A stretch of 46,987 nucleotides of DNA from Patescibacteria group bacterium (lineage in GTDB: Bacteria > Patescibacteriota > JAHJAL01), in assembly GCA_049322675.1 (NCBI GenBank), contig JBMORM010000022.1, positions 1 through 46,987 of the forward strand. The letters are read 5' to 3'. Made by a program: the position numbers and the translations under genes. This document shows, in pieces, positions 10,219-45,872 of this stretch. Below the pieces are notes generated by a model. The model did not search any database. It saw nothing but the letters and a program-made list of their open reading frames with translations, and was not told where the DNA came from. Within the stretch, counting starts at the first letter, position 1; each line of letters starts with the position of its first letter.

Positions 10219-11742
10219 ATGGTAAATATTTTAGGGATCGAAACCAGTTGTGATGAGACGGGAGTGGCGGTGGTACATGGGGGAAATTTCCAATTTCCAG
10301 TTTATCCCTCACGGGACCGAACTGCTGCTGGCAATTTCCAAAAAAATAATGTAGGGGCGGGTTTCAAACCTGCCCGTACGAGATGTGGCGATTTTCGAAT
10401 TCTAGCGGAGGGGTTGGCTAGTTCGGTGGATTTGCAGAAGGAATATGGCGGGGTGGTGCCGGAGTTGGCGAGTCGGGTGCATGTGGAGAAAATAAATCTG
10501 TTGTTGGCCAAATGTTTAAAACAAGCAAAGTTGGATTGGAGTGATATTGATGCGATCGCGGTGGCCAATGGTCCGGGGTTGGTTGGTTCATTATTGGTGG
10601 GAACGATGGTGGCGAAGACCTTGGGGATGGTTTTGGGAAAACCGTTGATATCTGTTAATCATCTTGAGGGACACATTTGTTCGGCTTTTTTGGCGGAAAA
10701 TACAGGAATTTTCAATTTTCAATTTTTCCCTCGCGGGACCGAACTGCTGCTGGCAATTTTTAATAAATTTTCAATTTCCAATTTTCAAAAAAATAATGTA
10801 GGGGCGGGTTTTAAACCCGCCCAGATAGGGGAAAATAATAAAAATCAGGAAAATACTTTTCCAATGTTGGTGTTGATTGTGAGTGGGGGGCATACGGAAT
10901 TGTTAATAATGAAGGATTTCGGGGAGTATGAGATGTTGGGGAGTACGGTGGATGATGCGGCGGGAGAGGCGTTTGATAAAGCGGCGAAAATACTGGGCCT
11001 GGATTATCCGGGAGGGCCGAGCATTTCGCGGCGGGCCGCGGAATGCAATTTCCAGTTTCCAATTTCCAGTTTCCAAACAAATAATGTAGGGGCGGGTTTT
11101 CCCCGCCCTTCGACGGAATTTTCTGGGTCGGAATTTTCCTGTTCTAATGTCAATATTGCGAAGGGCGGGGGAACCCCGCCCGTACAAACGGGTGAAAATT
11201 TTGATTTTGTTTTGCCGCGCCCGATGATTGAGACGGATGATTTCAATTTTTCTTTTTCGGGGCTTAAAACGGCGCTGTTATATAAATGGAAAGAAATTTC
11301 CAATTTTTCCCCTCACGGGGATCAGCTGGTGCCGAAATTTCCAATTTCCAAAAAATTTCCAATGACCAATTTCCAAATTGAGAAGGGAAAAAACATTAGT
11401 AGGGGCGGGGTTACCCCGCCCCTACGAGATGAATTGGTGAATAGGATGGCATATGAATTTCAGGAGGCGGTGGTGGATGTTTTGGTGACGAAGACGGTGA
11501 AGGCGGCGGAGAAGTTTAAGATTAATAAAGTGGCGATTGTCGGTGGGGTGGCAGCCAATGGGAGATTTAGAGAGGAGATGAAAATTCGATTGGATAAAAT
11601 CGGGCGGCAATTGATAGTTCCGCCGATTAAATATTGTACGGACAATGGGGCGAAGATCGCGGTGGCGGGATTTTTTAAATATCTAAAAAAAGATTTTACT
11701 GATTGGAAAAAGTTGGAAGTTAATAGCAATTGGGAACTTTGA
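10219..11742 (+). CDS. tsaD: tRNA N6-adenosine threonylcarbamoyltransferase TsaD carrying four in-frame repeat-derived insertions
   Basis: ILGIETSCDET, GGVVPELASRVH, GPGLVGSL, NHLEGH, VSGGHT, DDAAGEAFDK, FSFSGLKT, GGVAAN and CTDNG are all intact and in one frame. 507 aa. Confidence 0.95.
   Translation: MVNILGIETSCDETGVAVVHGGNFQFPVYPSRDRTAAGNFQKNNVGAGFKPARTRCGDFRILAEGLASSVDLQKEYGGVVPELASRVHVEKINLLLAKCLKQAKLDWSDIDAIAVANGPGLVGSLLVGTMVAKTLGMVLGKPLISVNHLEGHICSAFLAENTGIFNFQFFPRGTELLLAIFNKFSISNFQKNNVGAGFKPAQIGENNKNQENTFPMLVLIVSGGHTELLIMKDFGEYEMLGSTVDDAAGEAFDKAAKILGLDYPGGPSISRRAAECNFQFPISSFQTNNVGAGFPRPSTEFSGSEFSCSNVNIAKGGGTPPVQTGENFDFVLPRPMIETDDFNFSFSGLKTALLYKWKEISNFSPHGDQLVPKFPISKKFPMTNFQIEKGKNISRGGVTPPLRDELVNRMAYEFQEAVVDVLVTKTVKAAEKFKINKVAIVGGVAANGRFREEMKIRLDKIGRQLIVPPIKYCTDNGAKIAVAGFFKYLKKDFTDWKKLEVNSNWEL
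10285..10380 (+). repeat. tsaD insertion 1: heptamer tract + 31-nt unit + GTAG REP
   Basis: AATTTCC repeats, then the 31-nt unit at 10306-10336, then GTAGGGGCGGGTTTCAAACCTGCCCGTAC at 10351-10379. Encodes NFQFPVYPSRDRTAAGNFQKNNVGAGFKPART. Confidence 0.9.
10707..10825 (+). repeat. tsaD insertion 2: heptamer tract + 31-nt unit + GTAG REP
   Basis: 31-nt unit at 10728-10758 and GTAGGGGCGGGTTTTAAACCCGCCC at 10798-10822. Confidence 0.9.
11047..11190 (+). repeat. tsaD insertion 3: heptamer tract + inverted REP pair (REPIN-like)
   Basis: GTAGGGGCGGGTTTTCCCCGCCCT from 11086 and its inverted partner AGGGCGGGGGAACCCCGCCCGTAC ending at 11185. Confidence 0.9.
11295..11425 (+). repeat. tsaD insertion 4: heptamer tract + degenerate 31-nt unit + perfect REP palindrome
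   Basis: ccctcacggggatcagctggtgccgaaatt at 11310-11339 and GTAGGGGCGGGG-TTA-CCCCGCCCCTAC at 11399-11425. Confidence 0.9.
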
Positions 11743-11862
11743 AACAATTTTTAATTTGTAATTTTTAATTTCTAAATATATTTTGAGGATATTATTTAGA
11801 TATATTAAACTCTTAAAAACTCTTTTAAACGTTTATAAACTCTTTGAAACTGGGGAAAATTT

Positions 11863-12010
11863 ATTGTGTCATCCTGGAACTGAAAGTGTCCTACTGGGCG
11901 TTTTAATATCCAGGATCCAGAACAAAATTTAAATTAATTTTTTCTTCAAATTATTTTTCTGGATCCTGGATAATGGAGCGGATTACCTTCCATTTCCAGG
12001 ATGACACAAT
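11863..12010. repeat. GTGTCATCCTGG...CCAGGATGACAC palindromic MITE-like element, copy 1
   Basis: Terminal IR attgtgtcatcctggaa/ttccaggatgacacaat and inner IR atccaggatccag/ctggatcctggat. A related copy lies at 31451-31565. Confidence 0.85.
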
Positions 12011-12137
12011 TCTTTTTGTTCCAAATATCTAATATTTTGAATTACCTATTGTTATCTGTTATTTGTTTAGAAATTAGAAATTAGAAATTAAAAATTGTAA
12101 AATAAGGTAGTTATAAATATTATCGAAGGATGATGTT

Positions 12138-14954
12138 ATGAGTGACGAGATGGACAAGATATTTGAGCCGGAGAAGTATGAGAGGGAGATATATAGGTCG
12201 TGGGAGGAAGGCGGTTTTTTTAAGGTTGAAATTGATGAAAATAGACAGCCATATACTATTATGATGCCGCCGCCCAACGCGACGGGGGTGTTGCATATCG
12301 GTCATGCGGTATTTTTATCGGTGTCAGATGCGATTATCAGATATAAACGCATGAAGGGATTTAATGCTTTGTGGCTTCCGGGGACGGATCATGCGGCAAT
12401 CGCGACGCAGACCAAGGTCGAAAAATTGATTGCCAAAGAAGGTCTCAATCGATTCGATTTGGGGAGGGAAAAATTTGTCCAAAGGGTGAAAGATTATGTG
12501 GAAAATTCTCGTTCGACGATGAAAAAGCAAATCAGAGCGACGGGGGCGAGTTGTGACTGGTCGCGCGAGGCTTATACTTTTTCTGATGAATTGTCGGTGG
12601 CGGTTAATACGGCTTTTTCCAAATTGTATGAAAAAGGTTTGATTTATCGGGGAGATCGGATTGTCAATTGGTGTCCGCGTTGCGGATCGACGTTGGCCGA
12701 TGATGAACTGGAATACAAGACGGAGAAAACTATTTTATATACATTTAAATATGATAAAGATTTTCCGATAACGATTGCGACGACGCGGCCGGAGACCAAG
12801 TTGGGCGATACGGCAGTGGCGGTCAATCCGGAGGATAAAAGATATCAGAAATTTATTGGTCAGACTTTGACGGCGGATTTTTGTGGACAAAAACTGGAGA
12901 TCAAAATTATTGCGGATGCCAATGTGGAAAGTGATTTTGGAACCGGGGCCTTGGGAGTGACGCCGGCGCATAGTATGGTGGATTTTGAGATGGCGCAAAA
13001 AAATGATTTGCCGGTTATCAAAATTATTGGTGAAGATGGCAAGATGAATGAGGCAGCGGGCGATTTTGTCGGTATGTCGGTAAAAGAAGCTCGGGAAAAA
13101 GTAATTGAAAACTTGAGAAAAAATAATCTGATCGAAAAAGAAGAAGAAATTGAACACAATTTGTCGGTTTGTTATCGTTGTTCGACTCCGATTGAACCGC
13201 TAACCAGCAAACAGTGGTTTGTAGATGTGCATAAAAAAGTGGATGGTTGGGATCGGGAAAAAATTAAAGGGTTGAATGTCGGAGAAAAGTATTCGATAAA
13301 AGATGTGGCGCGGTTGGTGGTGACCAATGGTCAGATTGAATTGATGCCGGAATCTTTCAATAAAGTGTATTTTAGTTGGATGGACAATTTGCGGGATTGG
13401 TGTATATCTAGGCAGATTTGGTGGGGACACCGGATTCCTGTTTGGTACAGGAATAATTTTCAATTTCCAATTTCCAATTTCCAATCAATTTCCAATTTTC
13501 AAACAAATAATGTAGGGGCACAGAATTCTGTGCCCATTGATGGAAAAAATACCAATCAGGAAATATATGTGGGAGTGAATCCGCCGGAGGGGGAGGGGTG
13601 GGTGCAGGATCAGGATACTTTGGATACTTGGTTTTCTTCGGCGTTGTGGACTTTCTCGACTTTGGGTTGGCCGGAAAAAACGGTGGATTTGTCGTACTTT
13701 CATCCTACGGATTTGATGGTAACAGGACGAGAAATTATTTTTCAGTGGGTGGCGAGGATGATTATTATGTCAACTTATCTGATGGGTGAGATTCCGTTTA
13801 AAAAAGTTTATTTTACCGGCTTGTTGTTTGATAAAGAAGGGCGCAAGATGAGCAAGTCGCTGGAAAACATTATCGATCCGATGGAGATGATTGAAAAATA
13901 CGGAGCGGATGCATTGCGCTTGTCTATTATAGTTGGTAATACGCCGGGAGTTGATTTTAAATATTATGATGAAAAAATAATCGGTCAGAGAAATTTCATA
14001 AATAAATTGTGGAATGTATCACGATTTATTATGGGCAAATTGGAACCGGGGATTGGTGGGGAGCAGATTGATATTCGGGATATTAGAGAAATAAATTTGA
14101 CCAAGGTGGACAAGTGGATTTTGAGCAAAATGGATGATTTGATTCAAAGAACTGGTAAACATTTGGATAATTATCGATTGGGGTTGGCGATTGAAGAAAT
14201 AAATAATTTTGTCTGGCATGATTTGGCGGATTGGTACCTTGAAATCATAAAATTTCCAATTTTCAATTTTCAATTTTCAAACAATAATGTAGGGGCAGGT
14301 CGCGACCTGCCTGATAATGAGATACAGCAAAGAAATCGGGACATACAGAAAATTTTGATTTTTATTTTGCAGAATATATTGGTTTTATTACATCCGTTTG
14401 TGCCGTTTGTGACGGAAGTGATATGGGAGAAATTGGGGAAGGGAGATTGGGGAAGATTGATTGCTCAGCCTTGGCCTGAGGTTTATGGGTTTGATTATCG
14501 TGATGAGCAAAAGGAAGTGAATAGTATTATCTTTGTTATTTCTCAAGTAAGGCAGGCGTTGACTGACGCTGGTTTGCAGACCCAAAATAATTTGGAATTG
14601 AAGTTGGTTTTTGAGGAAAAAAATCATGATGGGGCTTTATTGATGGAAACAATGGGAAAGATGCTACGAGCGGTAAAAAAGATTGATAAAGTAAATAGTG
14701 TGGCAGGTGATTCGTTGGTGGTAAATGTTGATGATGTTAAAGTTGGGATAAATGTAGATGAAAGTGTTTTGAAAGAAAGAAAAGAACAAGAAAAAAAAGA
14801 GTTGGTTGATTTGGAAAAATATATTGCAGATTTATCCAAGAGATTGGAAAATAAGCAGTTTGTAGAAAATGCACCAAAGGAAGTAGTTGAAAAAGAGCGG
14901 GAAAAATTGGCTAAGGCGAGGGAGAGACGCAGTCAACTTGCAATTAATAATTAG
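12138..14954 (+). CDS. valS: Valyl-tRNA synthetase with two in-frame repeat-derived insertions
   Basis: 938 aa with PPPNATGVLHIGH, PGTDHAAIATQ, ATTRPET, DWCISRQIWWGHRIP, DTLDTWFSS, KMSKS and a C-terminal coiled coil. Confidence 0.97.
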   Translation: MSDEMDKIFEPEKYEREIYRSWEEGGFFKVEIDENRQPYTIMMPPPNATGVLHIGHAVFLSVSDAIIRYKRMKGFNALWLPGTDHAAIATQTKVEKLIAKEGLNRFDLGREKFVQRVKDYVENSRSTMKKQIRATGASCDWSREAYTFSDELSVAVNTAFSKLYEKGLIYRGDRIVNWCPRCGSTLADDELEYKTEKTILYTFKYDKDFPITIATTRPETKLGDTAVAVNPEDKRYQKFIGQTLTADFCGQKLEIKIIADANVESDFGTGALGVTPAHSMVDFEMAQKNDLPVIKIIGEDGKMNEAAGDFVGMSVKEAREKVIENLRKNNLIEKEEEIEHNLSVCYRCSTPIEPLTSKQWFVDVHKKVDGWDREKIKGLNVGEKYSIKDVARLVVTNGQIELMPESFNKVYFSWMDNLRDWCISRQIWWGHRIPVWYRNNFQFPISNFQSISNFQTNNVGAQNSVPIDGKNTNQEIYVGVNPPEGEGWVQDQDTLDTWFSSALWTFSTLGWPEKTVDLSYFHPTDLMVTGREIIFQWVARMIIMSTYLMGEIPFKKVYFTGLLFDKEGRKMSKSLENIIDPMEMIEKYGADALRLSIIVGNTPGVDFKYYDEKIIGQRNFINKLWNVSRFIMGKLEPGIGGEQIDIRDIREINLTKVDKWILSKMDDLIQRTGKHLDNYRLGLAIEEINNFVWHDLADWYLEIIKFPIFNFQFSNNNVGAGRDLPDNEIQQRNRDIQKILIFILQNILVLLHPFVPFVTEVIWEKLGKGDWGRLIAQPWPEVYGFDYRDEQKEVNSIIFVISQVRQALTDAGLQTQNNLELKLVFEEKNHDGALLMETMGKMLRAVKKIDKVNSVAGDSLVVNVDDVKVGINVDESVLKERKEQEKKELVDLEKYIADLSKRLENKQFVENAPKEVVEKEREKLAKARERRSQLAINN
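13455..13540 (+). repeat. valS insertion 1: heptamer tract + GTAG REP
   Basis: (AATTTCC)n followed by GTAGGGGCACAGAATTCTGTGCCC at 13512-13535. Encodes NFQFPISNFQSISNFQTNNVGAQNSVP. Confidence 0.9.
14251..14312 (+). repeat. valS insertion 2: heptamer tract + GTAG REP
   Basis: (AATTTTC)n followed by GTAGGGGCAGGTCGCGACCTGCC at 14289-14311. Encodes FPIFNFQFSNNNVGAGRDLP. Confidence 0.9.
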
Positions 14955-14966
14955 CAATGAACAATT

Positions 14967-15163
14967 GTTGGAAAGTTATAAAGTTGTAAAGTGGGAGAAA
15001 ATGATATGAATTTAACTTGATAATTTTATGATTTTTTAACTTTTTAACTGCGATTTATTTATTGGGTTTTGTTGGAAAGTTATAAAGTTTATAAAGTTGT
15101 AAAGTGGGAGAAAAAGATATGAATTTAACTTTCAACTTGATAACTTTTAACTTTTTTTAACTG
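14967..15163. repeat. Tandem pair (~104-bp period) of AAAGTTN/NAACTTT hairpin elements
   Basis: gttggaaagttataaagtt...gtgggagaaa..gatatgaatttaact occurs at 14967 and again at 15071. Confidence 0.75.
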
Positions 15164-15171
15164 TAATTTTA

Positions 15172-16095
15172 ATGCAAAATTGGAAAAAAATATTATATTC
15201 CGTGGGGATGGGGGTGGTGGCTTGTTTGATTGTGGTGGCAACTGGTGTGTTGCTTTGGCAATTGACGGCCGGACAACGACGGACGATGGCGGAGGAATAT
15301 TTACAGAAGGCTGATGATTATTTGGCCGAAGATGACGGACAGGCTTTGTGGGAGTTGACAAAAGCCTATACTTTGGATTTGAGTTATCGGGATTATCGAG
15401 TAAAGAGGGCTTTGGCTTTGCGGACTTTGGGCGACAAAGATGCGGAAAAAGAGTTGAAGGAAGTAATTGATCTTAATTGGGCTGATGACATGGTGAATTT
15501 TCGTTATGCCGAGATTTTGTTGGAACAAGGTAAGGAAAATGAGGCGGTTGATTTTTTTAAAAAGGTGACGAATCGAGCTGATAGTGAGGTAAAAAATGAG
15601 GTTTTGTTGAATTTGCTGCAGTTGGCTGGAAATCAGGGAAAGTGGGAAGAGGCGGTGGGTTTTCGAGGGCAATTGATTGATCTGGAAAAAAATAATCCGG
15701 AAAAATTGCGTTATGAAGCGGCTCTTTCTTTGGTGACGGTAGATTTGAATGATGAACTGAAAAAAAAGTTGAAGTTGGTATTGGGTGAAAAATTTTCGGA
15801 AGAAAAATATACCATTTTGAATCAAGTGAATGGGGATAGTTATGTGGTGCAAGCGGCTGATTGGTTGTTGGATTTGGGTTTGACAAAGTGGGGTCGTAAT
15901 TATCTGCAACAGTTGGATCAAACTGATTTGGAAATGATAGATGTTTATTTGTTGCAAGCCAAGAGTTATTGGTTGGAAGGAAAATGTGCTTTGGCTGCGG
16001 ATTATATTGAACGGACGTATCAAATTGATTCGACAAATGAGCAGGTGAGGGAGTGGGAAGAGTTGATAGGTGGGGGATGTAGAGAATTAAAATAA
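15172..16095 (+). CDS. Membrane-anchored TPR-repeat protein
   Basis: 307 aa. An N-terminal TM helix is followed by helical repeats such as YAEILLEQGKENEAVDFFKKV and AKSYWLEGKCALAADY. Confidence 0.7.
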   Translation: MQNWKKILYSVGMGVVACLIVVATGVLLWQLTAGQRRTMAEEYLQKADDYLAEDDGQALWELTKAYTLDLSYRDYRVKRALALRTLGDKDAEKELKEVIDLNWADDMVNFRYAEILLEQGKENEAVDFFKKVTNRADSEVKNEVLLNLLQLAGNQGKWEEAVGFRGQLIDLEKNNPEKLRYEAALSLVTVDLNDELKKKLKLVLGEKFSEEKYTILNQVNGDSYVVQAADWLLDLGLTKWGRNYLQQLDQTDLEMIDVYLLQAKSYWLEGKCALAADYIERTYQIDSTNEQVREWEELIGGGCRELK

Positions 16096-16247
16096 ATTTC
16101 CAATTTCCAATTTTCGATTTCCAATAAAGGCTCAATTTTTCCCTCACGGGACCGAACCGCTGCTGGCAATTTTCAAACAAGTAGGTATTTCATTGGAAAT
16201 TGTGAATTGGAAATTTTTTGGAAATTGGAAATTGTGAATTGGAAATT
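16095..16247. repeat. Heptamer hairpin element with 31-nt unit
   Basis: The (AATTTCC)n arm abuts the upstream stop codon, the 31-nt unit lies at 16141-16171, and the (GGAAATT)n arm ends 8 nt before the next ATG. Confidence 0.9.
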
Positions 16248-16255
16248 GCTAATTT

Positions 16256-17698: not shown

Positions 17699-17762
17699 CA
17701 TTAATAATGAATAATTAATAGTGAATAATAATTGGATGGTTAAAAGTTGGAAAGTTGGGGGG

Positions 17763-17796
17763 ATAAAAAAACGAACTTGTTGGTTCGTTTTTTTAT
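17763..17796. terminator. Bidirectional intrinsic terminator
   Basis: ATAAAAAAACGAAC-6 nt-GTTCGTTTTTTTAT forms a perfect 14-bp stem between convergent genes. Confidence 0.75.
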
Positions 17797-17815
17797 TATT
17801 TGCTGGGAGAAAATT

Positions 17816-18604: not shown

Positions 18605-18633
18605 TTTTTGTTTGGGTTTTCAGGTGAAATTGA

Positions 18634-19767: not shown

Positions 19768-19845
19768 ATTTTTTTGTTTAAATTATTTATTTGTTTACTA
19801 CTAGTTGTTTTTATAATTTTGATTTTGTTGGTTTTTTTTATTTTT

Positions 19846-21640: not shown

Positions 21641-21727
21641 AATTTTCAATTTTCAATTTTCAATTTCCAAATATGTATTGTCGCAAGATTGGGAAAAAGA
21701 GAATTGAATAATTAATAATTGGAAATT
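21641..21727. repeat. Short heptamer hairpin element
   Basis: (aattttc)3 aatttcc ... aattggaaatt fills the gap between the 1904-aa gene and pilB. Confidence 0.7.
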
Positions 21728-27474: not shown

Positions 27475-27595
27475 AGTTGAAAGTTTGAAAGTTATAAAGT
27501 TTTTTCGTTTCAACTTTCAACTTTGTAACTTTATAACTGATTTTTCTGTTTTTAAGAGTTTTAAAGGGTTTGTAAGTGTTTCTAAGAGTTTTTTA
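27475..27595. repeat. AAAGTTN/NAACTTT hairpin followed by a 10-mer GTTTNNAAGA tract
   Basis: agttgaaagtttgaaagttataaagtt...aactttcaactttgtaactttataact (27475-27538), then 10-nt periodic repeats at 27548-27595. Confidence 0.7.
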
Positions 27596-29083: not shown

Positions 29084-29084
29084 A

Positions 29085-31640: not shown

Positions 31641-33473
31641 CTACATTCCTCCGCGCATGGAGAGGATTTCTTCGGGGTTGGAGGTGATGAGGCGGTGTTC
31701 GGTGTAGGAAGCGACGATTTTGATCAAGACGTGATTGAGACCGGCAAAGAAAATACCTTCGCCGACGTTGGATTCGAGTAGGGCCATTTTTTCGCCATCG
31801 GTTAGATTGAAAGTGCGACCAATGAGGTCGATGGAAGCCGGAGATTGTTTCAACAAAATTTGCATGGCGGAGTTGGAGATCATGGCTTTGCCCCATTTTG
31901 ATCCTAAAAAGTCTTCGACATCTTGAGAAATGGTAGTAACGCCGAGGTAATATTTACGAGAACGTTTGGTGAGGTTGTGCAAGAAACGGGCGGAGTCTTC
32001 GTATTGCATGAGATTCCAGGCTTCGTCGATAACCATGATGCGGCGTTTGAGGTTGGTACGGATTTTGGTCCAGATGAAGTTGGTGATGACGTACATAGCG
32101 ATCGGACGGAGGGCTTCTTCGAGGTCGCGGACGGAAAAGACGATAAAGTTTGATTTGAGATCGATATTGGTGGGGTTGTTTAGCAGACCGGAATAACTGC
32201 CTTCGGTGTATTTTTGCAGGCGTTGGGCCATGGATTCGCCGCCGTGCATGTTGATCAAAATGCTGTATAGGTCAGAAAGAAGAGGGGCGGGGTTTTTGTG
32301 GCTGGATGGTTCTTCGGTGATATCTTTCAAAGCGTAAGTTTCTTTGATGGCTTTGTCCATGATGGCGCTTTCTTCGGGAGTAAGTTGGCCCAACATGATA
32401 TTCATGATGCCGGAGATGGTGATGATAGCGGTGCGAAGGGCGTTTTCTTCATCGCCTTCGCTGGTGGCCGGCAAGTCCAGGGGATTGATTTTGCGGTCGG
32501 AGTTGATAGAGATTGGAATATAGGTACCGCCGACGGCTTCACAAAGGTTTTGGTATTCGTTTTCGGGATCGATGATGATAATGTCGGTACCAAGCATGAG
32601 ATAGCGCAGACACTCCAGCTTGACGGTATAACTTTTACCGGCACCGGAGGTGGCGAAAATGGTGCAGTTGGGATTGGCTAAATCAAAACGGTCAAAAATA
32701 ACCAATGATTGGTTATGACCGTTGAAGCCATAGAAGATTCCATTGTCGGAAGTCAGATCGACGGAAGTGAAAGGGAATGATGTGGAAATCGCGTCGGTGT
32801 CGAGATTTCTGGTAATATTGAGTTCGTCATTGTTGAGCGGCAAGGTGCTATTGAAACCTTGTTCTTGCTGAAGAATAGCATTTTTGGTGTAGATCAAAGA
32901 TCCACCCAAGACAGTTTCCAGATGGTCGATATTGGTTTTCAATTCTTTCTCACTGTCGGCATATACGGTGAAGTAGAGTCCATAGAGAAATAATTTTTCG
33001 CTACCTTGTTGGATGCGATAGCGCAATTCTTCGGCGTCTTGGATAGCGGTTTCCAGTTTGGGGTCGGAGACTTCGCCTTTTTCGCGGCCGATGGCATATG
33101 TCGCTTGCATACGACCAACTCGGTTTCTCAAGTCTTCCAGTACGGCCTTGGATTCCTGGGGATAGATGAACATACTGATATCCATGGTGGCATCGTAGGA
33201 AATAATTGGTGAAAGCCAGTTGGTGTTTAAAAAGCGGGGATAGGTGAAGACAAACAAAGTCTGAACATAGCTTTCATTGATGATCAGATAGTTGGGAGTG
33301 ATGCGAAAGGCGGAGGGGGCGACGATGTCTTTGAGGGAGATCATACCCTCTTCAAAAACACGACGAGCTTCAGTCAGCCGTTTGCGTTCCTCTTCCAATC
33401 GTTTCTTTTCATCCAAAGCTTTTTGCTTGGCAGGGTCGAGAGATTTGGGTTTGAAGATATCGAAGATAGACAT
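31641..33473 (-). CDS. virB4: VirB4/TraC-like type IV secretion ATPase
   Basis: 610 aa with Walker A ATSGAGKS, IIIDPENEY, INPLD, Walker B IMVIDEAW, RKY and ISQDVEDF. Confidence 0.9.
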   Translation of the reverse strand: MSIFDIFKPKSLDPAKQKALDEKKRLEEERKRLTEARRVFEEGMISLKDIVAPSAFRITPNYLIINESYVQTLFVFTYPRFLNTNWLSPIISYDATMDISMFIYPQESKAVLEDLRNRVGRMQATYAIGREKGEVSDPKLETAIQDAEELRYRIQQGSEKLFLYGLYFTVYADSEKELKTNIDHLETVLGGSLIYTKNAILQQEQGFNSTLPLNNDELNITRNLDTDAISTSFPFTSVDLTSDNGIFYGFNGHNQSLVIFDRFDLANPNCTIFATSGAGKSYTVKLECLRYLMLGTDIIIIDPENEYQNLCEAVGGTYIPISINSDRKINPLDLPATSEGDEENALRTAIITISGIMNIMLGQLTPEESAIMDKAIKETYALKDITEEPSSHKNPAPLLSDLYSILINMHGGESMAQRLQKYTEGSYSGLLNNPTNIDLKSNFIVFSVRDLEEALRPIAMYVITNFIWTKIRTNLKRRIMVIDEAWNLMQYEDSARFLHNLTKRSRKYYLGVTTISQDVEDFLGSKWGKAMISNSAMQILLKQSPASIDLIGRTFNLTDGEKMALLESNVGEGIFFAGLNHVLIKIVASYTEHRLITSNPEEILSMRGGM

Positions 33474-33522
33474 ATTTTAGTTATTATTTTTGTAAAATTA
33501 ATTTATTTGAAGGTGGCTATTC

Positions 33523-33663
33523 AATTTCCAATTTCCAATTTCCAAAGAAGGCTCAATTTCCAATTTCCAAACAAATTCTGGTGTGTTTATTTTGAGAATT
33601 GTATTTGTTTGAAAATTGATAATTGGAAATTTTTTGGAAATTGGAAATTGAGAATTGGAAATT
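33523..33663. repeat. Heptamer hairpin element
   Basis: (aatttcc)3 aaagaaggctc aatttcc aatttcc aaac ... gtttgaaaattgataattggaaatt...ggaaatt, ending at the stop codon of the upstream gene. Confidence 0.9.
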
Positions 33664-33664
33664 T

Positions 33665-34360
33665 TTATTCCGTCTTCACGCTTCCCACAACATCTGAAGT
33701 CAGTGAATCGACTTTGAAAAGTTTTTGGTGGCGGGAGGTGATGGGGTTGAAGTGGACGTACATGAGTTCGGCGATTTCTTGGGTGGTGAGGGCGATAGTG
33801 CGCAGTCCCATGGAGGCTAAACCGGAGGCGACGATATTGATTCTTTCGGTCATTTTTTCCCGGGCTAATTGGAAATCTTTTTCTTTGACAACCAGTTCGT
33901 TTTTGTCGGGGAATATTTTTTGCCAAAAGCCTTTGGTGGCCGTATCCGGCGGGTAGAAAGAGACGATAATATAAAACTTTTTTTCCATGATGTTGGTAAC
34001 CTGCATTAGGCGCTGGATAAAGGAGATGTATTCGGTCATTTGAACGCGGAGCAGGTCGTTTGGCTGTTTGTTTTCCAAATCTTTGAGCTTGGCGATGTAT
34101 TCCGATAAGTCCAGTTTTTTGGATTGAACGACGATTTGAATCGGAAAAGATAGAGAATTCAAAAAGTTTTGGTATTGGTAAATAATCGCATTTTGTTCTT
34201 GATCGGATTTGAGGTCAAAGTTGATGGCGGAAGTGAGTAAGACACTTCGCAGACTGCCGTCTTTCAAAATGACATAACCATCGCGAATTTCTTTAAATGG
34301 CAAATACATCTGGGTAGATGTTTTGGGATTTGATTTCTTTTTTTTGAAAGTTGGTTTCAT
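33665..34360 (-). CDS. TraC/VirB4 N-terminal-like T4SS accessory protein
   Basis: 231 aa with the pattern STQ.YL...EIRDG.VILKDG, INFDLKS..EQ and FLNSL.FPIQI. Lies between prgI and virB4. Confidence 0.7.
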   Translation of the reverse strand: MKPTFKKKKSNPKTSTQMYLPFKEIRDGYVILKDGSLRSVLLTSAINFDLKSDQEQNAIIYQYQNFLNSLSFPIQIVVQSKKLDLSEYIAKLKDLENKQPNDLLRVQMTEYISFIQRLMQVTNIMEKKFYIIVSFYPPDTATKGFWQKIFPDKNELVVKEKDFQLAREKMTERINIVASGLASMGLRTIALTTQEIAELMYVHFNPITSRHQKLFKVDSLTSDVVGSVKTE

Positions 34361-34413: not shown

Positions 34414-34543
34414 AATTTCCAGTTTCCAGTTTCCAATTTCCAAAAAAGGCTCAATTTCCAAACGAATGCAATCTGTTCCTGTATTTGTTTGGAAATTGAT
34501 CATTGGAAATTTATTGAAAATTGGAAATTGAGAATTGAAAATT
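34414..34543. repeat. Heptamer hairpin element
   Basis: Same architecture including the aaggctcaatttccaaac and gtttggaaattgatcattggaaatt core. Abuts the prgI stop codon. Confidence 0.9.
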
Positions 34544-37024: not shown

Positions 37025-37030
37025 AAATTT

Positions 37031-38020: not shown

Positions 38021-38056
38021 TTTATATTAAAATTATTAATCGATGATGATAAATAT

Positions 38057-40420: not shown

Positions 40421-40461
40421 ATGTGTTTTTGTTTTGTTTTTGGCTGTATAAAAATCATATT

Positions 40462-40491
40462 ATTGTACCAAATTTGGTTTGTATTTGTCAA
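40462..40491 (-). promoter_or_regulatory. Sigma70 promoter for the virB6-prgI-virB4 operon
   Basis: Minus strand TTGACA-18 nt-TACAAT with extended -10 (TGgTACAAT), ~40 nt upstream of the ATG at 40420. Confidence 0.7.
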
Positions 40492-40653
40492 GATTGATAC
40501 TGATTTTGTTTTGTGTGCCTGTTTTTGGAGAAGATTATATTTTAGCAGTGAGGGGGTAAAATTGTAAAGGGTTGGGTGGTGAAATTTTTCTGACTTTATA
40601 TTTTTTGGAATTTTTAAGACTCGAACATTGCCTTTGATGAAGAGAGTCGGGTA

Positions 40654-40821
40654 AATTTCCAATTCTCAATTTCCAATTTCCAAAAAATGACTCAATTTCC
40701 AAACAAATTCAAGATGCTTTCTTATTAAGTTGAATCTGTTAGGAAATTGGTCATTGAAAATTTATTGGAAATTGAGAATTGCCAGCAGCAGTTCGGTCCC
40801 GTGAGGGGAAAATTGGAAATT
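40654..40821. repeat. Heptamer hairpin element with 31-nt unit in reverse orientation
   Basis: AATTGCCAGCAGCAGTTCGGTCCCGTGAGGG at 40777-40807 lies within the GGAAATT arm. Confidence 0.9.
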
Positions 40822-40841
40822 TTAATCAGGGTAGTGCAAGA

Positions 40842-40870
40842 AAAACACCTTCAAAGCTTGAAGGTGTTTT
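40842..40870 (-). terminator. Intrinsic terminator after the pilin array
   Basis: AAAACACCTTCAA-3 nt-TTGAAGGTGTTTT forms a 13-bp stem 22 nt past the last pilin stop. Confidence 0.7.
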
Positions 40871-40892
40871 AAGATAGCAAGAATTTGAGGAG

Positions 40893-41204
40893 TTATTTGA
40901 TTTTCTGGATTACAAAACGGATGATCAGGTTGGCGGAAAGGATGATGACTAGACCAATAACAGACCAAGTGATGGTGCCGATGGCTTTTTTTCCTTGTTC
41001 GGGATTGCCGGCGGCGGTGATGTATTGGTATCCGCCCAGGACGGCATAAGCGATAGATATCAATCCGGCGAGGGTAGTGGCGGTGTTTATAACCAATGTG
41101 AGAAGGTCGTAGATATTGGTATCAACATCTTTGAAGGGATTCAGTTTTTTTAACTCTTCAAAAAAGTTGAAGCCGGCGGCGAGATAAAAAAGCCAGTTGT
41201 TCAT
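40893..41204 (-). CDS. VirB2/TrbC-like T4SS pilin (8 of 8)
   Basis: 103 aa; TM-GGYQYITAAGNPEQGKKA-TM (VIGLVII). Confidence 0.85.
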   Translation of the reverse strand: MNNWLFYLAAGFNFFEELKKLNPFKDVDTNIYDLLTLVINTATTLAGLISIAYAVLGGYQYITAAGNPEQGKKAIGTITWSVIGLVIILSANLIIRFVIQKIK

Positions 41205-41222
41205 GGTAATTATTTGTTAGGA

Positions 41223-41603
41223 TCAGCTACCGGTGATAATGGCATTTGGGATACCTGTTCCACCAAAGACGACTCTTTGAACAGTGACAACGATGGCATA
41301 AGCGGCAAAGATTACTACTAGACCGATAACAGCGTTGAGTAAGGTGCGGACGGCTTTTTTGGTAGTTTCTTCATTCCCACCGGAGGTAATGTAGTTGAAA
41401 CCACCAATGATCAAATAGACCACAGCGACCAAACCGGCGGCGCCCAAAATATAGTTGATGATTGTAAAGGCAAGACTTTCAACGTTGGTTTTTACAGCTT
41501 GAGGTAGAGATTCTGCGCCAGCAGCAAAAGCGGTGGCGTAATAAAACGCAGTGGCGGTGAGAGTTGTCAAGCCGGATGTGACTTGAGCAATTTTTTTGTT
41601 CAT
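41223..41603 (-). CDS. VirB2/TrbC-like T4SS pilin (7 of 8)
   Basis: 126 aa; GGFNYITSGGNEETTKKA..LLNAVIGLVVIFAAYAIV. Confidence 0.85.
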   Translation of the reverse strand: MNKKIAQVTSGLTTLTATAFYYATAFAAGAESLPQAVKTNVESLAFTIINYILGAAGLVAVVYLIIGGFNYITSGGNEETTKKAVRTLLNAVIGLVVIFAAYAIVVTVQRVVFGGTGIPNAIITGS

Positions 41604-41639
41604 AGAACTCCTAAATGAATTTATATTAAAAATAATAAT

Positions 41640-42017
41640 TTAATTGATAATACCGGGTATGCCGGGAGCGACTACATCTTGGATGGAAATAACTATAGCA
41701 TAGGCAGCGAAGATTACTACTAGACCGATAACGGCATTGAGTAAGGCTTTTGTAGCTTTTTTGCTGGTTTCTTCGTTTCCTCCAGAGGTGACATACATGA
41801 AACCGCTGATGATAATATAGATAACCGCGACTAGGCCCGCGGCGACCAGGGCGTAATTGATGATGCCAAAAGCAAAATCAGTAATATTTTGTTTTGGACC
41901 GCCCCAGGGATCGAGAAAGCTATCAAAACTTACTGCCAGAGCAGTACTTTTTAGATACAGAAAAGAAAATATTGCGACGAATGGTTGCCAAATCTTTTTG
42001 GCGTCTTGCGTTGACAT
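41640..42017 (-). CDS. VirB2/TrbC-like T4SS pilin (6 of 8)
   Basis: 125 aa; SGFMYVTSGGNEETSKKA..LLNAVIGLVVIFAAYAIV. Confidence 0.85.
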   Translation of the reverse strand: MSTQDAKKIWQPFVAIFSFLYLKSTALAVSFDSFLDPWGGPKQNITDFAFGIINYALVAAGLVAVIYIIISGFMYVTSGGNEETSKKATKALLNAVIGLVVIFAAYAIVISIQDVVAPGIPGIIN

Positions 42018-42132
42018 TTTTCTCCTTTTTTCTCTAGTGCTAGATAATAATATATCTTAAATATTTTTAAAAAACAATGTGGTTGAAGTGGAAAATTATC
42101 ATAGAGTCAAAATGATTTATTGTCAAAGGTTT

Positions 42133-42429
42133 TTATTTGATTATATCTACGACAGTGGTTTTGATGGCGTAGGCGGCGAGGACGATTACTAGACCGATGA
42201 CAGCGAAGGTGAGAGTTTTTTGGGCTTTTTTGGAGGTTTCTTCGTTGCCTTGGGACATGATGTATTGGAAACCGCCTATTATGATAAACACTACAGCGAC
42301 CAGGCCGGCGACGGTGAGAAAATAGTTGACAAAGGTCCAACCCAAATCTTCGATGTTGTTGAATTTAATCGGTGATTCTGGTTCAGGGACTGATTCGGCG
42401 GCGAGGACGGGGGAGATAAAATTTAGCAT
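42133..42429 (-). CDS. VirB2/TrbC-like T4SS pilin (5 of 8)
   Basis: GGFQYIMSQGNEETSKKA..AVIGLVIV. ATG at 42429 preferred over the TTG at 42453. Confidence 0.85.
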   Translation of the reverse strand: MLNFISPVLAAESVPEPESPIKFNNIEDLGWTFVNYFLTVAGLVAVVFIIIGGFQYIMSQGNEETSKKAQKTLTFAVIGLVIVLAAYAIKTTVVDIIK

Positions 42430-42595
42430 GGAACGTATATTAATAATTAACAATTAATAATGAAAAATGAATAATAGGTATAAAGTTGATAGGCTCAAGT
42501 TTTCTGCTGGGTGCGAACTTGTTTCGGGATTACAAAATTTTTAAAGATAATTTAATGCTTGAAGCCGAGTGCGTTTTTATAAGTTAATTTTTTTG

Positions 42596-42928
42596 TTATT
42601 CTATTTTTAAAACTGCTTTTATAGAACTCACGATGACGGCGGCGGCGAGGACGATGACTAGGCCGATGACAGCGTTGGTGAGCGTTTTTTGTCCGGCTTT
42701 GGTTTTTTCGTCATTGCCGCCGGAAGTGAGATATTGATAACCGCCATAGACCAAAAAAGCGACACAAACAATGCCGGCGAAGCCATAGGCCCAGGAGAAA
42801 ATGGTAAAAATCAGGTCGTAGATATTATCAAATTTGAGAGGATTTTCCGGAAGAAAACTTTCCAGTTTGCCTAAAATATCATCTTCGGCGAGAAGGGTTA
42901 GTTGGTGAAAAATTATTTGAGGGAACAT
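42596..42928 (-). CDS. VirB2/TrbC-like T4SS pilin (4 of 8)
   Basis: 110 aa; GGYQYLTSGGNDEKTKAG..LTNAVIGLVIV. Confidence 0.85.
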   Translation of the reverse strand: MFPQIIFHQLTLLAEDDILGKLESFLPENPLKFDNIYDLIFTIFSWAYGFAGIVCVAFLVYGGYQYLTSGGNDEKTKAGQKTLTNAVIGLVIVLAAAVIVSSIKAVLKIE

Positions 42929-42997
42929 TTTTTTTAATTAACAATTAATAATTAACAATTGGTAATAGCTGTTTGGTGTTTTTTTGAAATTTAATGG

Positions 42998-43345
42998 TCA
43001 GTTGTGGAGATCTTCGATGTTGATTCCGGTGAATTTGTCCAGAAAAGTAGCGACGATGATATATCCGGTAAGAGTGACTACAAAACCGATTATGGCCCAC
43101 AATAGACTACTTTTGGCTTTTTTGCTGGTTTCTTCGTTGCCGCCGGAATAGATGAGTTGAAGACCGCTGATGATGATAAATAAGACGGCGACGAGAGCAC
43201 CCAAACCGATTAGATTGCCGGCTAAGTACAAAACAAAACCAAGCACATCTTCAAAAGTTGCTTCTTTGGCACAATGGGCAAATTTGTAGCCAAAGAGAAC
43301 TAAAGGTTCGCAGGCGGTAGCCAAATAGGTGAGTGAATTAAACAT
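42998..43345 (-). CDS. VirB2/TrbC-like T4SS pilin (3 of 8)
   Basis: 115 aa; SGLQLIYSGGNEETSKKA..LLWAIIGFVV. Confidence 0.85.
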   Translation of the reverse strand: MFNSLTYLATACEPLVLFGYKFAHCAKEATFEDVLGFVLYLAGNLIGLGALVAVLFIIISGLQLIYSGGNEETSKKAKSSLLWAIIGFVVTLTGYIIVATFLDKFTGINIEDLHN

Positions 43346-43368
43346 TGTTTAATATTTTTTATTTTGAG

Positions 43369-43731
43369 TTATTGTTGGTCAACTTTGAGCCAGACTTTGA
43401 TAGTTTGGACAATCACTACTCCGGCGAGAGCGATAATAAAACCGATGATGGCGTTGGTGAGGGCTTTTTTGCCGGTTTGAACTTGTTGTTCGTTACCAGC
43501 TGAGCTGACCAAGATGTAGCCACCGTAAATAATGTAGCCGACGGCTAAAAATCCGGCAATAGACAGTAAAAAGGTGATGGCGTTGAGTAGAAATGGGGCA
43601 ATCATGCCAAATAATGTCTCGTCGCCATCAAGCGGTTTGGTGTCAGTAAGGTTCGGGACGTATTCTTCGGCGCGGGCGAAGTTGGGGAATAGAAAGATGG
43701 TGGATAGAATTAAATATTTTAGTTTAGACAT
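43369..43731 (-). CDS. VirB2/TrbC-like T4SS pilin (2 of 8)
   Basis: 120 aa; signal sequence ending ARA, then GGYILVSSAGNEQQVQTGKKALTNAIIG. Confidence 0.85.
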   Translation of the reverse strand: MSKLKYLILSTIFLFPNFARAEEYVPNLTDTKPLDGDETLFGMIAPFLLNAITFLLSIAGFLAVGYIIYGGYILVSSAGNEQQVQTGKKALTNAIIGFIIALAGVVIVQTIKVWLKVDQQ

Positions 43732-43760
43732 GATTTAAGTAAAAGATAATAAGACGTAAA

Positions 43761-44312
43761 TTAGGTGAATGCTCCTGGATTTCCACCGGGGACAACAGTG
43801 CCGTCTTCAAGTGGGTTACCGGTGCCTTCGTTAGTTCCTGAGTAATTATTTGGTTGAGTGGTTTGGCTGCTGGTACTAGGTTCCGGTTTGGGATTGTTGA
43901 TGATTTGAGGGGAAATGATGCGAAGGACGGTGTAGGCAAGGACCAATAGGGCGAGACTGACGAGGGCGGAGATGATGGTATTTTTTCCTTTGTTGATCAT
44001 CTCCGGATTTCCGGAGGAAATAATCATGGTGTAGCCGCCATATACTATCATGATAATAGAGATACCGGTAATAAGCCAGATGGCAAAAATGTAAAAATCT
44101 TTAACGTATTCACTGAGGCTGGAATATTTATTATCGCTGGAGGTAGGCAGTTGGGCACGCACTTCGACCGGTTTGTCGGCGGCGATTATTGTGAAAGAAG
44201 AAAACAGATTATTGTTGGTTTGGGCGCGAGAAGGTTGAGGACATATCACTATGATCCCTATCAGAAGTAGGAATGAAAAAAATATTTTTTTGAATGTATT
44301 TGCTTTGATCAT
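43761..44312 (-). CDS. VirB2/TrbC-like T4SS pilin with C-terminal extension (1 of 8)
   Basis: 183 aa; GGYTMIISSGNPEMINKGKNTIISALV plus a P/T/S/N/G-rich tail. Confidence 0.8.
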   Translation of the reverse strand: MIKANTFKKIFFSFLLLIGIIVICPQPSRAQTNNNLFSSFTIIAADKPVEVRAQLPTSSDNKYSSLSEYVKDFYIFAIWLITGISIIMIVYGGYTMIISSGNPEMINKGKNTIISALVSLALLVLAYTVLRIISPQIINNPKPEPSTSSQTTQPNNYSGTNEGTGNPLEDGTVVPGGNPGAFT

Positions 44313-45667
44313 TATTGAGTTTTTGCTTTGATCATAAGGTCGGTGATATCATTTTGGGCTTTATTGAGAGCTTGTTCGGAATTGACATTATTGGTTGAAA
44401 CATCGGTGATCATTTGGTTGAAAATATTGTCAACTTTGTTGCCGTCAATTTTGTAGAATGATTTGGCGTAAAAAGATTGTTGATCGAAAATGCTACTTGA
44501 TTGCTTGGCGTTGTCGCGCAGAGAGGTTGGTTTGTTGGTTCTTTGATTATAATAGCCATTTTCGGCTACAAACTTGATAAAGTCCCAGGCCCAGGCAGCG
44601 TTTTTGCTTTGACGACTGACACTTTCTCCCCAATAATTGGCATAGGAAACCGGATCGTCGGTGTCGTAGATTTGAGGAAGACGAGCAACTTTGAATTCGA
44701 CGGAGGGGTCTTTGAATTTTTCGATGACTGGTTCTTGGTAGGAATAATTGATAGTCATGGCGGAATATCCTTTTTCGAAAGCTTCCAGTGATCCCATCAT
44801 GGATTGATTCCAACAGAAGTTTTCGCTAATGGGATCGGCGAAGCTGGTATAAAAGTTGAGCGATTTGAGTCCTGGGTAAAATGTATCTCCGGTCGGAGTA
44901 CGGGTGGGGAGGGCAAAACTGGCGGAAGAATTGTCGGGGGAAGTCATGTTGGTACTGTTTTGAATCATCATGGCGTAGAGGATGTCGGAGGCGCGATTGA
45001 TATTGTTGGCTGTTCCCAGAGTGACGCCGGAAGATAGGATATTGCCGGACGAGATTTTGCTTAATTTGCGACTGTATTCGGTGAGTTGGGTCCAGGTGCT
45101 GGGAGGAGAATAATATTCATTTTTTTCCAGAATTTTTTTGTTGTAATAAAGTGCCAAAGTGTCCACTGAGAAGGGAATAGCGTAAATATTGTCGTTGGCG
45201 ATAAAGTCGGAAACGGCAACGTCCACAAACATATCTTTGTATTGATCGAGAGTCATTATTTCATCAGGAATTGGCTCGATTAGGGCATTGTGTTTGGGGA
45301 CCCAGTCGTTGTGAATTTGAAAAATATCCGGACCTTGATTGGCGGCCAGGGCCTGAACAAGGGTATTTTCGTAGTTATCATAATTCATTTTTTTGTATTC
45401 AAAAGTGACTTTGGTTTTGGAGATCTGATAGTATTTTTGTTTATAGGATTCAAACAATGGCTCCATGGTGTCGCTGTCGTCGAAGAGACGCCAGACGGTG
45501 AGAGTGATATCGGAAGGGCAGGGTTGGCCTTTTTCTACACCGGGACAGAGAGGATCAACTATTACTTGTTGTTTGCCACAACCACCACTTTGTTGACCGG
45601 TGGAAGTTAGAAAAATAATGAAAGAGAATAATAAAATTTTGGCGAGGTGGGAGAATTTGGTGGACAT
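44312..45667 (-). CDS. Extracellular solute-binding protein (sugar-type ABC SBP fold)
   Basis: ALAANQGPDIF, IYAIPFSVDTLALYYNK, PPSTW and AWAWDFIKF, with a hydrophobic N-terminus containing GGCG. ATG at 45667 preferred over the TTG at 45691. Confidence 0.85.
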   Translation of the reverse strand: MSTKFSHLAKILLFSFIIFLTSTGQQSGGCGKQQVIVDPLCPGVEKGQPCPSDITLTVWRLFDDSDTMEPLFESYKQKYYQISKTKVTFEYKKMNYDNYENTLVQALAANQGPDIFQIHNDWVPKHNALIEPIPDEIMTLDQYKDMFVDVAVSDFIANDNIYAIPFSVDTLALYYNKKILEKNEYYSPPSTWTQLTEYSRKLSKISSGNILSSGVTLGTANNINRASDILYAMMIQNSTNMTSPDNSSASFALPTRTPTGDTFYPGLKSLNFYTSFADPISENFCWNQSMMGSLEAFEKGYSAMTINYSYQEPVIEKFKDPSVEFKVARLPQIYDTDDPVSYANYWGESVSRQSKNAAWAWDFIKFVAENGYYNQRTNKPTSLRDNAKQSSSIFDQQSFYAKSFYKIDGNKVDNIFNQMITDVSTNNVNSEQALNKAQNDITDLMIKAKTQ

Positions 45668-45715
45668 TTTTTTTAAATTAACAATGAACAATTAAAATTA
45701 ACAGAGGGAGCTTTT

Positions 45716-45872
45716 AATTTTTCCCTCACGGGACCGAACTGCTGCTGGCAATTTCCAGTTTCCAGTTTCCAATGAAGGCTCAATTTCCAATTTTCAAAAA
45801 ATGTTTTGTTGGGATATTTGGAAATTGGTCATTGGAAATTTTTTGGAAATTGAGAATTGAAAATTGGAAATT
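45716..45872. repeat. Heptamer hairpin element with 31-nt unit
   Basis: 31-nt unit at 45723-45753, aaggctcaatttcc core and a GGAAATT arm running to 45872. Confidence 0.9.

Follow-up and report, generated by a model that had tools for sequence, protein, structure and literature searches.

A 27-nt SDR-like repeat nested within heptamer tracts of a Patescibacteria group bacterium

Independent passenger repeats as small as the one considered here, nested within other repeats, have, as far as we found in the literature searched, been described only in heterocyst-forming cyanobacteria. The small dispersed repeats (SDRs) SDR1-8 of Nostoc punctiforme and its relatives are reportedly 21-27 nt long and nested in tandem heptamers and mini-transposons, and the secondary structure of SDR4-6 is said to be backed by compensatory changes; these repeats were described by Elhai et al. 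2008 (Genome Res 18:1484). In the available excerpts of other papers, SDRs are very small repeat modules, with SDR5 inserting precisely between nucleotides 3 and 4 of HIP1 (PMC4390886), no repeat resembling the SDRs had turned up in HIP1-rich cyanobacteria outside the Nostocaceae (PMC5861425), and the origin of SDRs is still called an open question (PMC3116915). Here we examine a 46,987-nt stretch of DNA from a Patescibacteria group bacterium (assembly GCA_049322675.1, contig JBMORM010000022.1, positions 1 to 46,987 of the forward strand), referred to throughout as the window, which carries copies of a 27-nt unit, U1, and of a second family of the same length, U2, inside tracts of AATTTCC-type heptamers. 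We favor, with moderate confidence, the reading that U1 and its sister U2 are GC-rich, non-coding passenger modules, SDR-like nested mini-repeats that are confined to heptamer tracts, gained and lost independently of their hosts, and spread by homology-guided copying.

The original prediction, which was made from the sequence of the window, described a 31-nt unit with five near-identical copies, and all five are found where it placed them, with 0, 1, 1, 0, and 0 mismatches in coordinate order (10306-10336, 10728-10758, 16141-16171, 40777-40807 on the minus strand, and 45723-45753), while no match to the 31-mer occurred in any of 100 dinucleotide shuffles. The recurrent sequence stood, and its length was refined: the conserved U1 core is 27 nt, CCCTCACGGGACCGAACTGCTGCTGGC (CCCTCAC...CTGGC), with each position kept in at least 5 of 6 copies (the five in the window and one in another assembly, at a locus designated L001), and the final four bases of the 31-mer (AATT) are the first bases of the following heptamer. 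Identity of the core averages 97.5% across 15 pairs, compared with 80-86% for the adjacent heptamers and 26-45% further out, such that identity drops one heptamer past the core. An ungapped scan of the window allowing up to 10 mismatches returned nothing extra except the sequence at 11310, and of the 63 matches that a covariance model gave (filters off, E<=10), the 7 training copies stood apart at 47.6-69.3 bits, with nothing else above 13.3 bits. The copies in the window, including the one of U2, are as follows.

10306..10332, plus strand: U1 copy A, in an in-frame heptamer element at tsaD loop 1, read PSRDRTAAG
10728..10754, plus strand: U1 copy B, with A6G in the hairpin loop, in an in-frame element at tsaD loop 2, read PRGTELLLA in the other frame
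11309..11335, plus strand: U2 (CCCCTCACGGGGATCAGCTGGTGCCGA), the second 27-nt family, in an in-frame element at tsaD loop 4, read PHGDQLVP
16141..16167, plus strand: U1 copy G, with T18C, in the left-arm inner tract of an intergenic palindromic heptamer element
40781..40807, minus strand: U1 copy K, in the right-arm outer tract of an intergenic palindromic element, where it is predicted to bulge unpaired from the hairpin
45723..45749, plus strand: U1 copy L, in an intergenic palindromic element, at the left arm's outer edge

The sequence at 11310 had been taken for a diverged copy of the same unit, a view that we abandon: it differs from U1 at 10 positions and belongs to the separate family U2 (11309-11335), which has the 5' hairpin in common with U1 and little else. 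The two families align with a score of 24, a value unmatched in 2000 shuffles (mean 7.5). The translation of U2 appears three times in an orthologous TsaD protein (P0004), and all four U2 copies share one arrangement, AATTTCC AATTTTT [U2], then two heptamers, then an A-run.

Both U1 and U2 span 9 codons and are open in all three forward frames. The mini-hairpin CCC-TCAC-GGG proposed for the start of the unit is present in its minimum-energy fold, but the energy of that fold is no better than that of shuffles (z -0.5 to -1.4). The hairpin of U1 has a 3-4 bp stem, lacks GTAG, and is not a doublet, and the 27-mer has no terminal inverted repeats. The U1 and U2 hairpins, with 3-bp and 4-bp stems respectively, have the TCAC loop in common, CCC(C)-TCAC-GGG(G), with few variants overall, and the sole U1 variant in this region (A6G in copy B) alters the loop and leaves the stem intact. 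The 3' halves of U1 (GCTGCTGG, 10324-10331) and U2 (GCTGGTGC, 11324-11331) may each be one position off the Escherichia coli Chi octamer; Chi varies between bacteria, and the likeness may be coincidence.

The tracts that hold these units lie in host elements of the window, listed here.

10285..10385, plus strand: host element A in tsaD, with heptamers, U1, a heptamer, an A-run, and a hairpin starting GTAGGGGC
10707..10832, plus strand: host element B in tsaD, carrying U1 copy B
11047..11195, plus strand: host element C in tsaD, with no unit and two GC-rich hairpins
11295..11432, plus strand: host element D in tsaD, carrying U2
13455..13546, plus strand: host element E in the valine-tRNA ligase gene, with no unit
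14251..14322, plus strand: host element F in the valine-tRNA ligase gene, with no unit
16095..16250, unstranded: palindromic element G, intergenic, holding U1
21641..21725, unstranded: heptamer element H, with no unit
33523..33663, unstranded: palindromic element I, intergenic, with four tracts, all empty
34414..34543, unstranded: palindromic element J, intergenic, with four tracts, all empty
40654..40821, unstranded: palindromic element K, intergenic, with U1 in the right arm
45716..45872, unstranded: palindromic element L, intergenic, with U1 at the left-arm edge and a right arm that is the empty counterpart of the K right arm
46859..46987, unstranded: heptamer element M, with no unit, continuing past the end of the window

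The palindromic elements between genes are G, I, J, K, and L, those at H, M, and N being partial. They are built from arms that each comprise an outer and an inner heptamer tract with a distinctive linker between them, ...aaggctc in one arm and ...aatgacc in the other, and as DNA they are predicted to form long hairpins of -27 to -40 kcal/mol. The in-frame elements, four in tsaD and two in the valine-tRNA ligase gene, run in the order heptamer tract, CAAA(C/A)AAATAAT, and GC-rich hairpin starting GTAGGGGC, and all read ...NFQ...NNVGAG... in translation. GC-rich hairpins stand at 10351, 10798, 11086, 11160, 11399, 13512, and 14289, six of them starting GTAGGGGC; their stems vary in sequence with pairing kept (RNA folds of -13 to -28 kcal/mol), giving them a REP-like look, and they are confined to the in-gene elements, where they are always translated ...NNVGAG....

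Placement of the units within this framework is strict. We studied seven DNA copies, namely five of U1 and one of U2 in the window and one of U1 at L001, and when the surrounding sequence is parsed into heptamers all seven lie exactly between two whole AATTTCC-type heptamers, in a single orientation and a single register (AATTTYY / unit / AATTYYY), with the sequence directly 5' of the unit always ...TTT(T/A)(T/C). The claim that each copy sits within a heptamer tract in the AATTTCC orientation thus holds, as every copy abuts such heptamers. Because the 28 tracts total only 588 nt, or 1.25% of the window, chance placement of all six window units in tracts is excluded. The distance from unit to tract 3' end is always 1-3 heptamers, in tracts of 2-5 heptamers. 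The 5' neighbor is the minority variant AATTTTT in 5/7 DNA copies, compared with a background of about 5% of tract heptamers (binomial P ~6e-6), and copies B and L001 are alike on both flanks, AATTTTC AATTTTT [U1] AATTTTT. Composites of heptamers plus unit recur between copies: A shares one with the TsaD protein P0024, B shares another with L001, and the four U2 copies have one in common. The copied segment is therefore often longer than the unit, a pattern as compatible with homology-guided copying or with composite sub-families spreading as it is with transposition.

Filled and empty hosts can be compared directly. It had been suggested that the unit occupies different positions in its hosts, and we find it outer-left in L, before the outer tract of the ...aaggctc arm; inner-left in G, in the inner tract of that arm; and outer-right in K, where the arm is the ...aatgacc one and the tract its outer one. 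The two elements reported to lack it, at 33523 and 34414 (I and J), do so, with no unit in any of the four tracts of each. The right arm of K reads AATTTCC AATTTTC [U1] AATTCTC AATTTCC aata AATTTTC aatgacc AATTTCC, and that of L (AATTTCC AATTTTC AATTCTC AATTTCC...) is the same arm minus the unit, apart from two substitutions; the two differ in length by exactly 27 nt, with no target duplication. The left arm of G likewise stands as the filled version of the left arms of I and L. With the unit removed, mean identity of the host arms is 83% (right) and 75% (left), compared with 97.5% for U1, and in the predicted host-element hairpins the unit is an unpaired bulge without a counterpart in the opposite arm.

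The tsaD gene occupies window positions 10219-11742 and the valine-tRNA ligase gene (protein abbreviated ValRS) positions 12138-14954, and six in-frame repeat elements are spread across these two essential genes. The window TsaD has 507 aa, compared with 327-354 aa for solved bacterial homologues, making it about 170 residues longer, and a block alignment to the solved T. maritima TsaD (6n9a_D) gives five aligned blocks, with insertions of 42, 53, 51, and 50 residues in place of linkers of 6, 4, 2, and 8 residues. U1 is read there in two frames, ...YPSRDRTAAGNFQ... and ...FPRGTELLLAIFN..., in agreement with the earlier observation of PSRDRTAAGN in one copy and PRGTELLLAI in the other. The unit can be tolerated inside the in-frame tsaD elements because it adds 9 codons and is open in all three forward frames, and the nested repeats insert lineage-specific peptide segments into essential proteins.

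The closest named relatives of both TsaD and ValRS are 'Patescibacteria group bacterium' proteins. When a set of 244 proteins was searched for the six-frame peptides of U1 and U2 with up to 2 mismatches, only three contained them, all TsaDs: P0001 (that of the window), P0004, and P0024. P0004 is a TsaD orthologue, 75% identical over aligned columns, that carries U2, not U1, at loops 1, 2, and 3. P0024, a distant and partial TsaD, is identical at 164 of its 279 residues (about 59% over aligned blocks); its loop 2 reads NFQFLVFPSRDRTAADNFQKN and matches the loop-1 composite of the window at 18/21 residues, both flanks included. A third TsaD orthologue, P0003, has insertions at the same loops with neither U1 nor U2, and ValRS orthologues (80-87% identity) vary in whether they have heptamer and hairpin modules at the same two sites, and none has a unit; across both proteins, orthologues of 75-87% identity have modules that differ or are missing at the same loops. 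Heptamer peptides occur in TsaD and ValRS homologues more broadly (forward-coded in 23/240, reverse-coded in 6/240). As the tract family is widespread in this radiation and the unit rare, the pattern is that expected of a passenger younger than its host. When 40 aa spanning copy A were searched against longer proteins, the window's own protein alone came back, which is weak evidence given that the word index also missed P0005, and 33 aa spanning copy B, searched against 1.84 billion representatives, had 5 matches, of which one was the query and the other 4 were unrelated repeat proteins that lack the unit. P0005, a more distant TsaD, has a similar NVGAGFKPARP segment at the same loop, with NVGAGFKPAR in common with the window protein. 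Two further TsaD homologues from other lineages, P0042 and P0036, have short non-heptamer segments between heptamer-coded peptides (e.g. KFPIS-PCFAKRGGAG-NFQFPI in P0042), which, judging by their sequences, may be further nested-unit families.

The unit is present beyond the window. In a scan of one genome per species (185,579 species, the genome of the window not among them) with a 20-nt core as query, only 1 of 54 loci had the full 31/31 unit, and this locus, L001, is in a Patescibacteria metagenome-assembled genome (MAG) of 39% G+C. There the unit again lies inside a heptamer palindrome at an unrelated locus, with a GH1 glycosidase gene on one side, a hypothetical gene on the other, and a tRNA-Arg close by. 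At the remaining 53 loci the match is due to chance or to coding sequence (...GTELLLA... type); their genomes have 57-78% G+C, and flank identities reach at most 4/7 and 2/4. The suggestion that the unit might match the end of an insertion sequence (IS) or the flank of a nuclease or reverse transcriptase gene failed: no such gene stands in the window or beside the L001 copy, where the neighbors are those just named.

Known classes of element were also considered. Rfam at its gathering score gave 0 matches over the whole window, and nothing credible in 10200-11500 at E<=10; ARAGORN found 0 tRNAs in the window, and in these searches no known RNA, tRNA, or CRISPR exceeded its threshold. One sub-threshold Rfam match, to CRISPR-DR37, covers 11297-11323 on the minus strand, its 23.6 bits falling short of the gathering score of 40 (E 0.16, with 1.3 kb searched); it spans the U2 hairpin and adjacent heptamers, and the U1 copies have no such match. 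A CRISPR repeat was rejected, this being the sole match, with copies dispersed over 35 kb and no array. A miniature inverted-repeat transposable element (MITE) was rejected on the lack of terminal inverted repeats and of target duplication in the K/L pair, and a repetitive extragenic palindromic (REP) sequence or REPIN because the unit has a 3-4 bp hairpin, no GTAG, and no doublet, GTAG hairpins being found in the host elements only. The 27-mer sequence is absent from the literature searched, which also holds no description of such elements in Patescibacteria, and the 2024 MITE review PMC10969869 has zero occurrences of 'Patescibacteria', 'nested', or 'heptam'.

How might such a module spread? 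In homology-guided copying, the flanking heptamers would supply the homology: a strand from one tract, in the course of replication or repair, could pair with a U-bearing tract elsewhere, be extended through the unit, and then return, by template switching or short-patch gene conversion. No dedicated transposase would be needed, and loss of the unit by slippage between flanking heptamers would be equally easy. The 5' hairpin and GC-rich body may merely be what survives in AT-rich tracts or, more speculatively, may promote pausing. Copying of this kind would explain why the unit is confined to tracts and keeps one orientation and register, why no target is duplicated, why flanks are co-copied, and why no enzyme gene is seen. 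Because neighboring heptamers are often common to copies, we regard it as at least as likely as true transposition, although both the copying mechanism and the reading of the differences as gains rather than losses are things that we infer. The original proposal of a secondary mobile unit targeting the heptamer repeat is accordingly retained in part: a discrete nested module with filled and empty hosts, excess identity, and presence in another assembly is what we observe, and independent movement of the 31-mer or enzymatic targeting goes beyond these observations.

Several points weigh against our preferred account. There are only 7 DNA copies and these are not independent, which leaves the flank statistics fragile. 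Presence and absence were read from paralogous elements and protein alignments, not from orthologous DNA loci, and precise deletion is indistinguishable from precise insertion. If tracts are interchangeable sub-modules, the 'different positions' of U1 may amount to the same relative position. The flanking homology of G and L001 is a single heptamer on one or both sides, short for RecA-type recombination, and the clean 27-nt difference between K and L with unchanged flanks fits a site-specific enzyme equally well. The search for genes covered the window, and a mobilizing gene may lie elsewhere in the source genome.

The alternative that survives best, though we think it unlikely, is that U1 is a transposable element of ultra-small size, mobilized in trans by an enzyme whose gene lies elsewhere in the genome, a candidate being a single-strand Y1/HUH transposase of the IS200/IS605 or RAYT (REP-associated tyrosine transposase) type. 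Such an enzyme would recognize the 5' hairpin and insert the 27-mer 3' of a heptamer's T-rich end. A single orientation and register, insertion without target duplication, and the clean filled/empty pair of K and L are all as expected of it, as are a 5' hairpin with a common TCAC loop in both U1 and U2, a hairpin-region variant that hits the loop and not the stem, near-identical copies in different genomes, and host hairpins that start with GTAG like REP sequences. However, the window, itself 91% filled by other open reading frames (ORFs), contains no such gene; the unit has one weak hairpin (z -0.5 to -1.4) and not two structured ends; and flanking heptamer variants co-occur with the unit, unlike the prediction of precise transposition.

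Next in standing, and to our minds improbable, is the proposal that the unit is a fixed component of one or a few composite heptamer sub-families, its position shifting through tract expansion and contraction, exchange of palindrome arms, and repeated loss. Here the recurring composites are telling: A (tsaD loop 1) and P0024 (tsaD loop 2) match across 21 residues with both flanks, B and L001 have AATTTTC AATTTTT [U1] AATTTTT in common, and all four U2 copies have the same composite. The constant spacing of 1-3 heptamers from the tract 3' end points the same way, as do the heptamer and hairpin modules that themselves come and go in ValRS and TsaD orthologues. Set against this, U1 occupies three non-equivalent tracts of one palindromic architecture with distinct linkers between them, the K and L right arms are the same sub-family with the unit as the difference, and identity of U1 exceeds that of the host arms.

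A bolder version of events, which we rate as a long shot, would have U1 and U2 as self-propagating 27-nt elements served by an unrecognized heptamer-tract-specific machinery of the same kind as for Nostocaceae SDRs, passing horizontally between Patescibacteria lineages and remodeling surface loops in essential enzymes such as TsaD. If true, a comparison of gene content between small Patescibacteria genomes with and without U-type units could expose the SDR mobilizer, missing from the picture since 2008.

It is very unlikely that the unit is a functional cis-element under selection (for example, a site bound by protein or RNA, or a signal for recombination or uptake) and not a selfish or neutral repeat. 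The very high identity of the unit across genomes, although their TsaD proteins are about 59% identical over aligned blocks, its conservation at the nucleotide level across two reading frames, and its fixed orientation relative to the tract could all reflect selection; yet it is found only within another repeat, in coding and non-coding DNA and on either strand relative to neighboring genes, is missing from close relatives and the majority of host elements, gives way to the different U2 in an orthologue, occurs once in 185,579 species genomes, and matches no Rfam family. An artefact (an adapter, vector fragment, or assembly chimera), for which we found no supporting evidence beyond the unit being short and GC-rich in an AT-rich setting, is hardly credible, given that tsaD stays in frame at two sites, that point variants are present, that the unit is also in an independent public assembly and an independent protein record, and that it has no full-length match among phage or plasmid records. 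The adapter or vector match that the original prediction had named as a danger was rejected on the literature searched and on blastn of the unit with its flanks, without use of a dedicated adapter or vector library: 50,697 phage records gave 36 partial chance matches in GC-rich genes (best E 2) and 72,556 plasmid records 133 (best E 0.04), with 0 covering >=80% of the query in either.

The remainder of the window is typical of Patescibacteria, or the candidate phyla radiation (CPR). At 41% G+C it holds 31 ORFs that make up 91% of its length, with a largest gap of 577 nt, and genes typical of the group include those for PrgI, TrbL/VirB6, VirB4-type ATPases, a type II secretion system/type IV pilus (T2SS/T4P) ATPase, FemAB, and a Mur ligase, in addition to tsaD and the valine-tRNA ligase gene. 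Among these 31 ORFs there are no transposase, reverse transcriptase, or nuclease families, and neither RAYT nor TnpA in a search limited to the window. Eight type IV secretion system pilin (T4SS-pilin; PF18895) paralogues lie in tandem at 40893-44312 on the minus strand. A VirB4-like function at 31641-34360 is divided between two ORFs, one TrsD-like and N-terminal (33665-34360), the other a P-loop ATPase (31641-33473), and element I lies in the 191 nt that separate them; because the TrsD profile matched end to end, the split pair looks, from its sequence, like a natural two-gene arrangement and not a disruption. A tandem repeat with a 114-nt period (3.2 copies, 91% matches) occupies 7522-7879, within the largest intergenic gap. 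Further A/T-rich tandem repeats of 7-8 nt (AAAGTTAT/TTTAACTT, ATTAATA, AATTAAC, TTAGAAA, and AATTTTT), some in inverted pairs, occur in many intergenic regions, and no U-type unit was found in those listed below.

11746-11775: A/T-rich tandem repeat
12067-12096: A/T-rich tandem repeat
14972-15155: A/T-rich tandem repeat
17703-17729: A/T-rich tandem repeat
27477-27592: A/T-rich tandem repeat
42439-42475: A/T-rich tandem repeat
42936-42960: A/T-rich tandem repeat
45676-45703: A/T-rich tandem repeat

U1 resembles several described systems in part. The palindrome-associated elements derived from IS200/IS605 have structured left and right ends and need TnpA; like them, the unit is orientation-specific, stands beside a short target motif, causes no target duplication, and has a hairpin near its end, but it has one weak 5' hairpin in 27 nt and no TnpA in the window. 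E. coli BIMEs (bacterial interspersed mosaic elements) and pneumococcal BOX elements are composites of a few short modules in variable number and order, and U1 likewise behaves as an optional module; we know of no report of BIME or BOX modules inside heptamer microsatellites, nor of any common to distant genomes at 96-100% identity. REP sequences are imperfect palindromes of about 20-40 nt with a 5' GTAG, usually arranged as inverted doublets. According to the part of PMC3116915 consulted on REP/REPIN sequences and RAYT tyrosine transposases, these are short, GC-rich, dispersed, hairpin-bearing, non-coding, and near-identical within a genome, as U1 is, and the host hairpins here begin with GTAG; U1 differs in its 3-4 bp hairpin without GTAG or doublet, in not being limited to extragenic DNA, and in having no RAYT in the window.

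Two further comparisons concern the host elements and tracts. The excerpt of PMC10969869 that names BOX also covers Rickettsia palindromic elements, which, like our host elements, are palindromic repeats in frame in unrelated housekeeping genes and translated as extra loops; they are about 150 bp and not heptamer-based, and the likeness concerns the host element, not the 27-nt unit. The heptamer direct repeats of cyanobacteria, Beggiatoaceae, and Bacteroidetes, as presented in the corresponding part of PMC4679880, form tracts of 2-6 units that are mostly intergenic with a patchy phylogeny, but they use another heptamer, and that part describes no nested unit.

Judged by anatomy, the unit is best called an SDR-like element, a name that sets it beside the SDRs by description and not as a family member. 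Like SDRs, it is very small (27 nt), non-coding, and dispersed in near-identical copies with no mobilizing enzyme known, and it is nested in other repeats, inserted precisely and at one set point within a short host motif. Unlike them, it belongs to Patescibacteria and not Nostocaceae, has copies in frame in essential genes, shows weak support for conserved structure, and is often copied together with its flanking heptamers. The class of unexplained ultra-small repeats is thereby extended to a second, very distant phylum with tiny genomes, and the same anatomy in an ultra-small Patescibacteria genome suggests a phenomenon tied to heptamer tracts generally and not to one lineage. Compared with the Nostocaceae, Patescibacteria offer a much smaller gene set in which to find a mobilizer of SDR-like repeats, or to show that none is needed.

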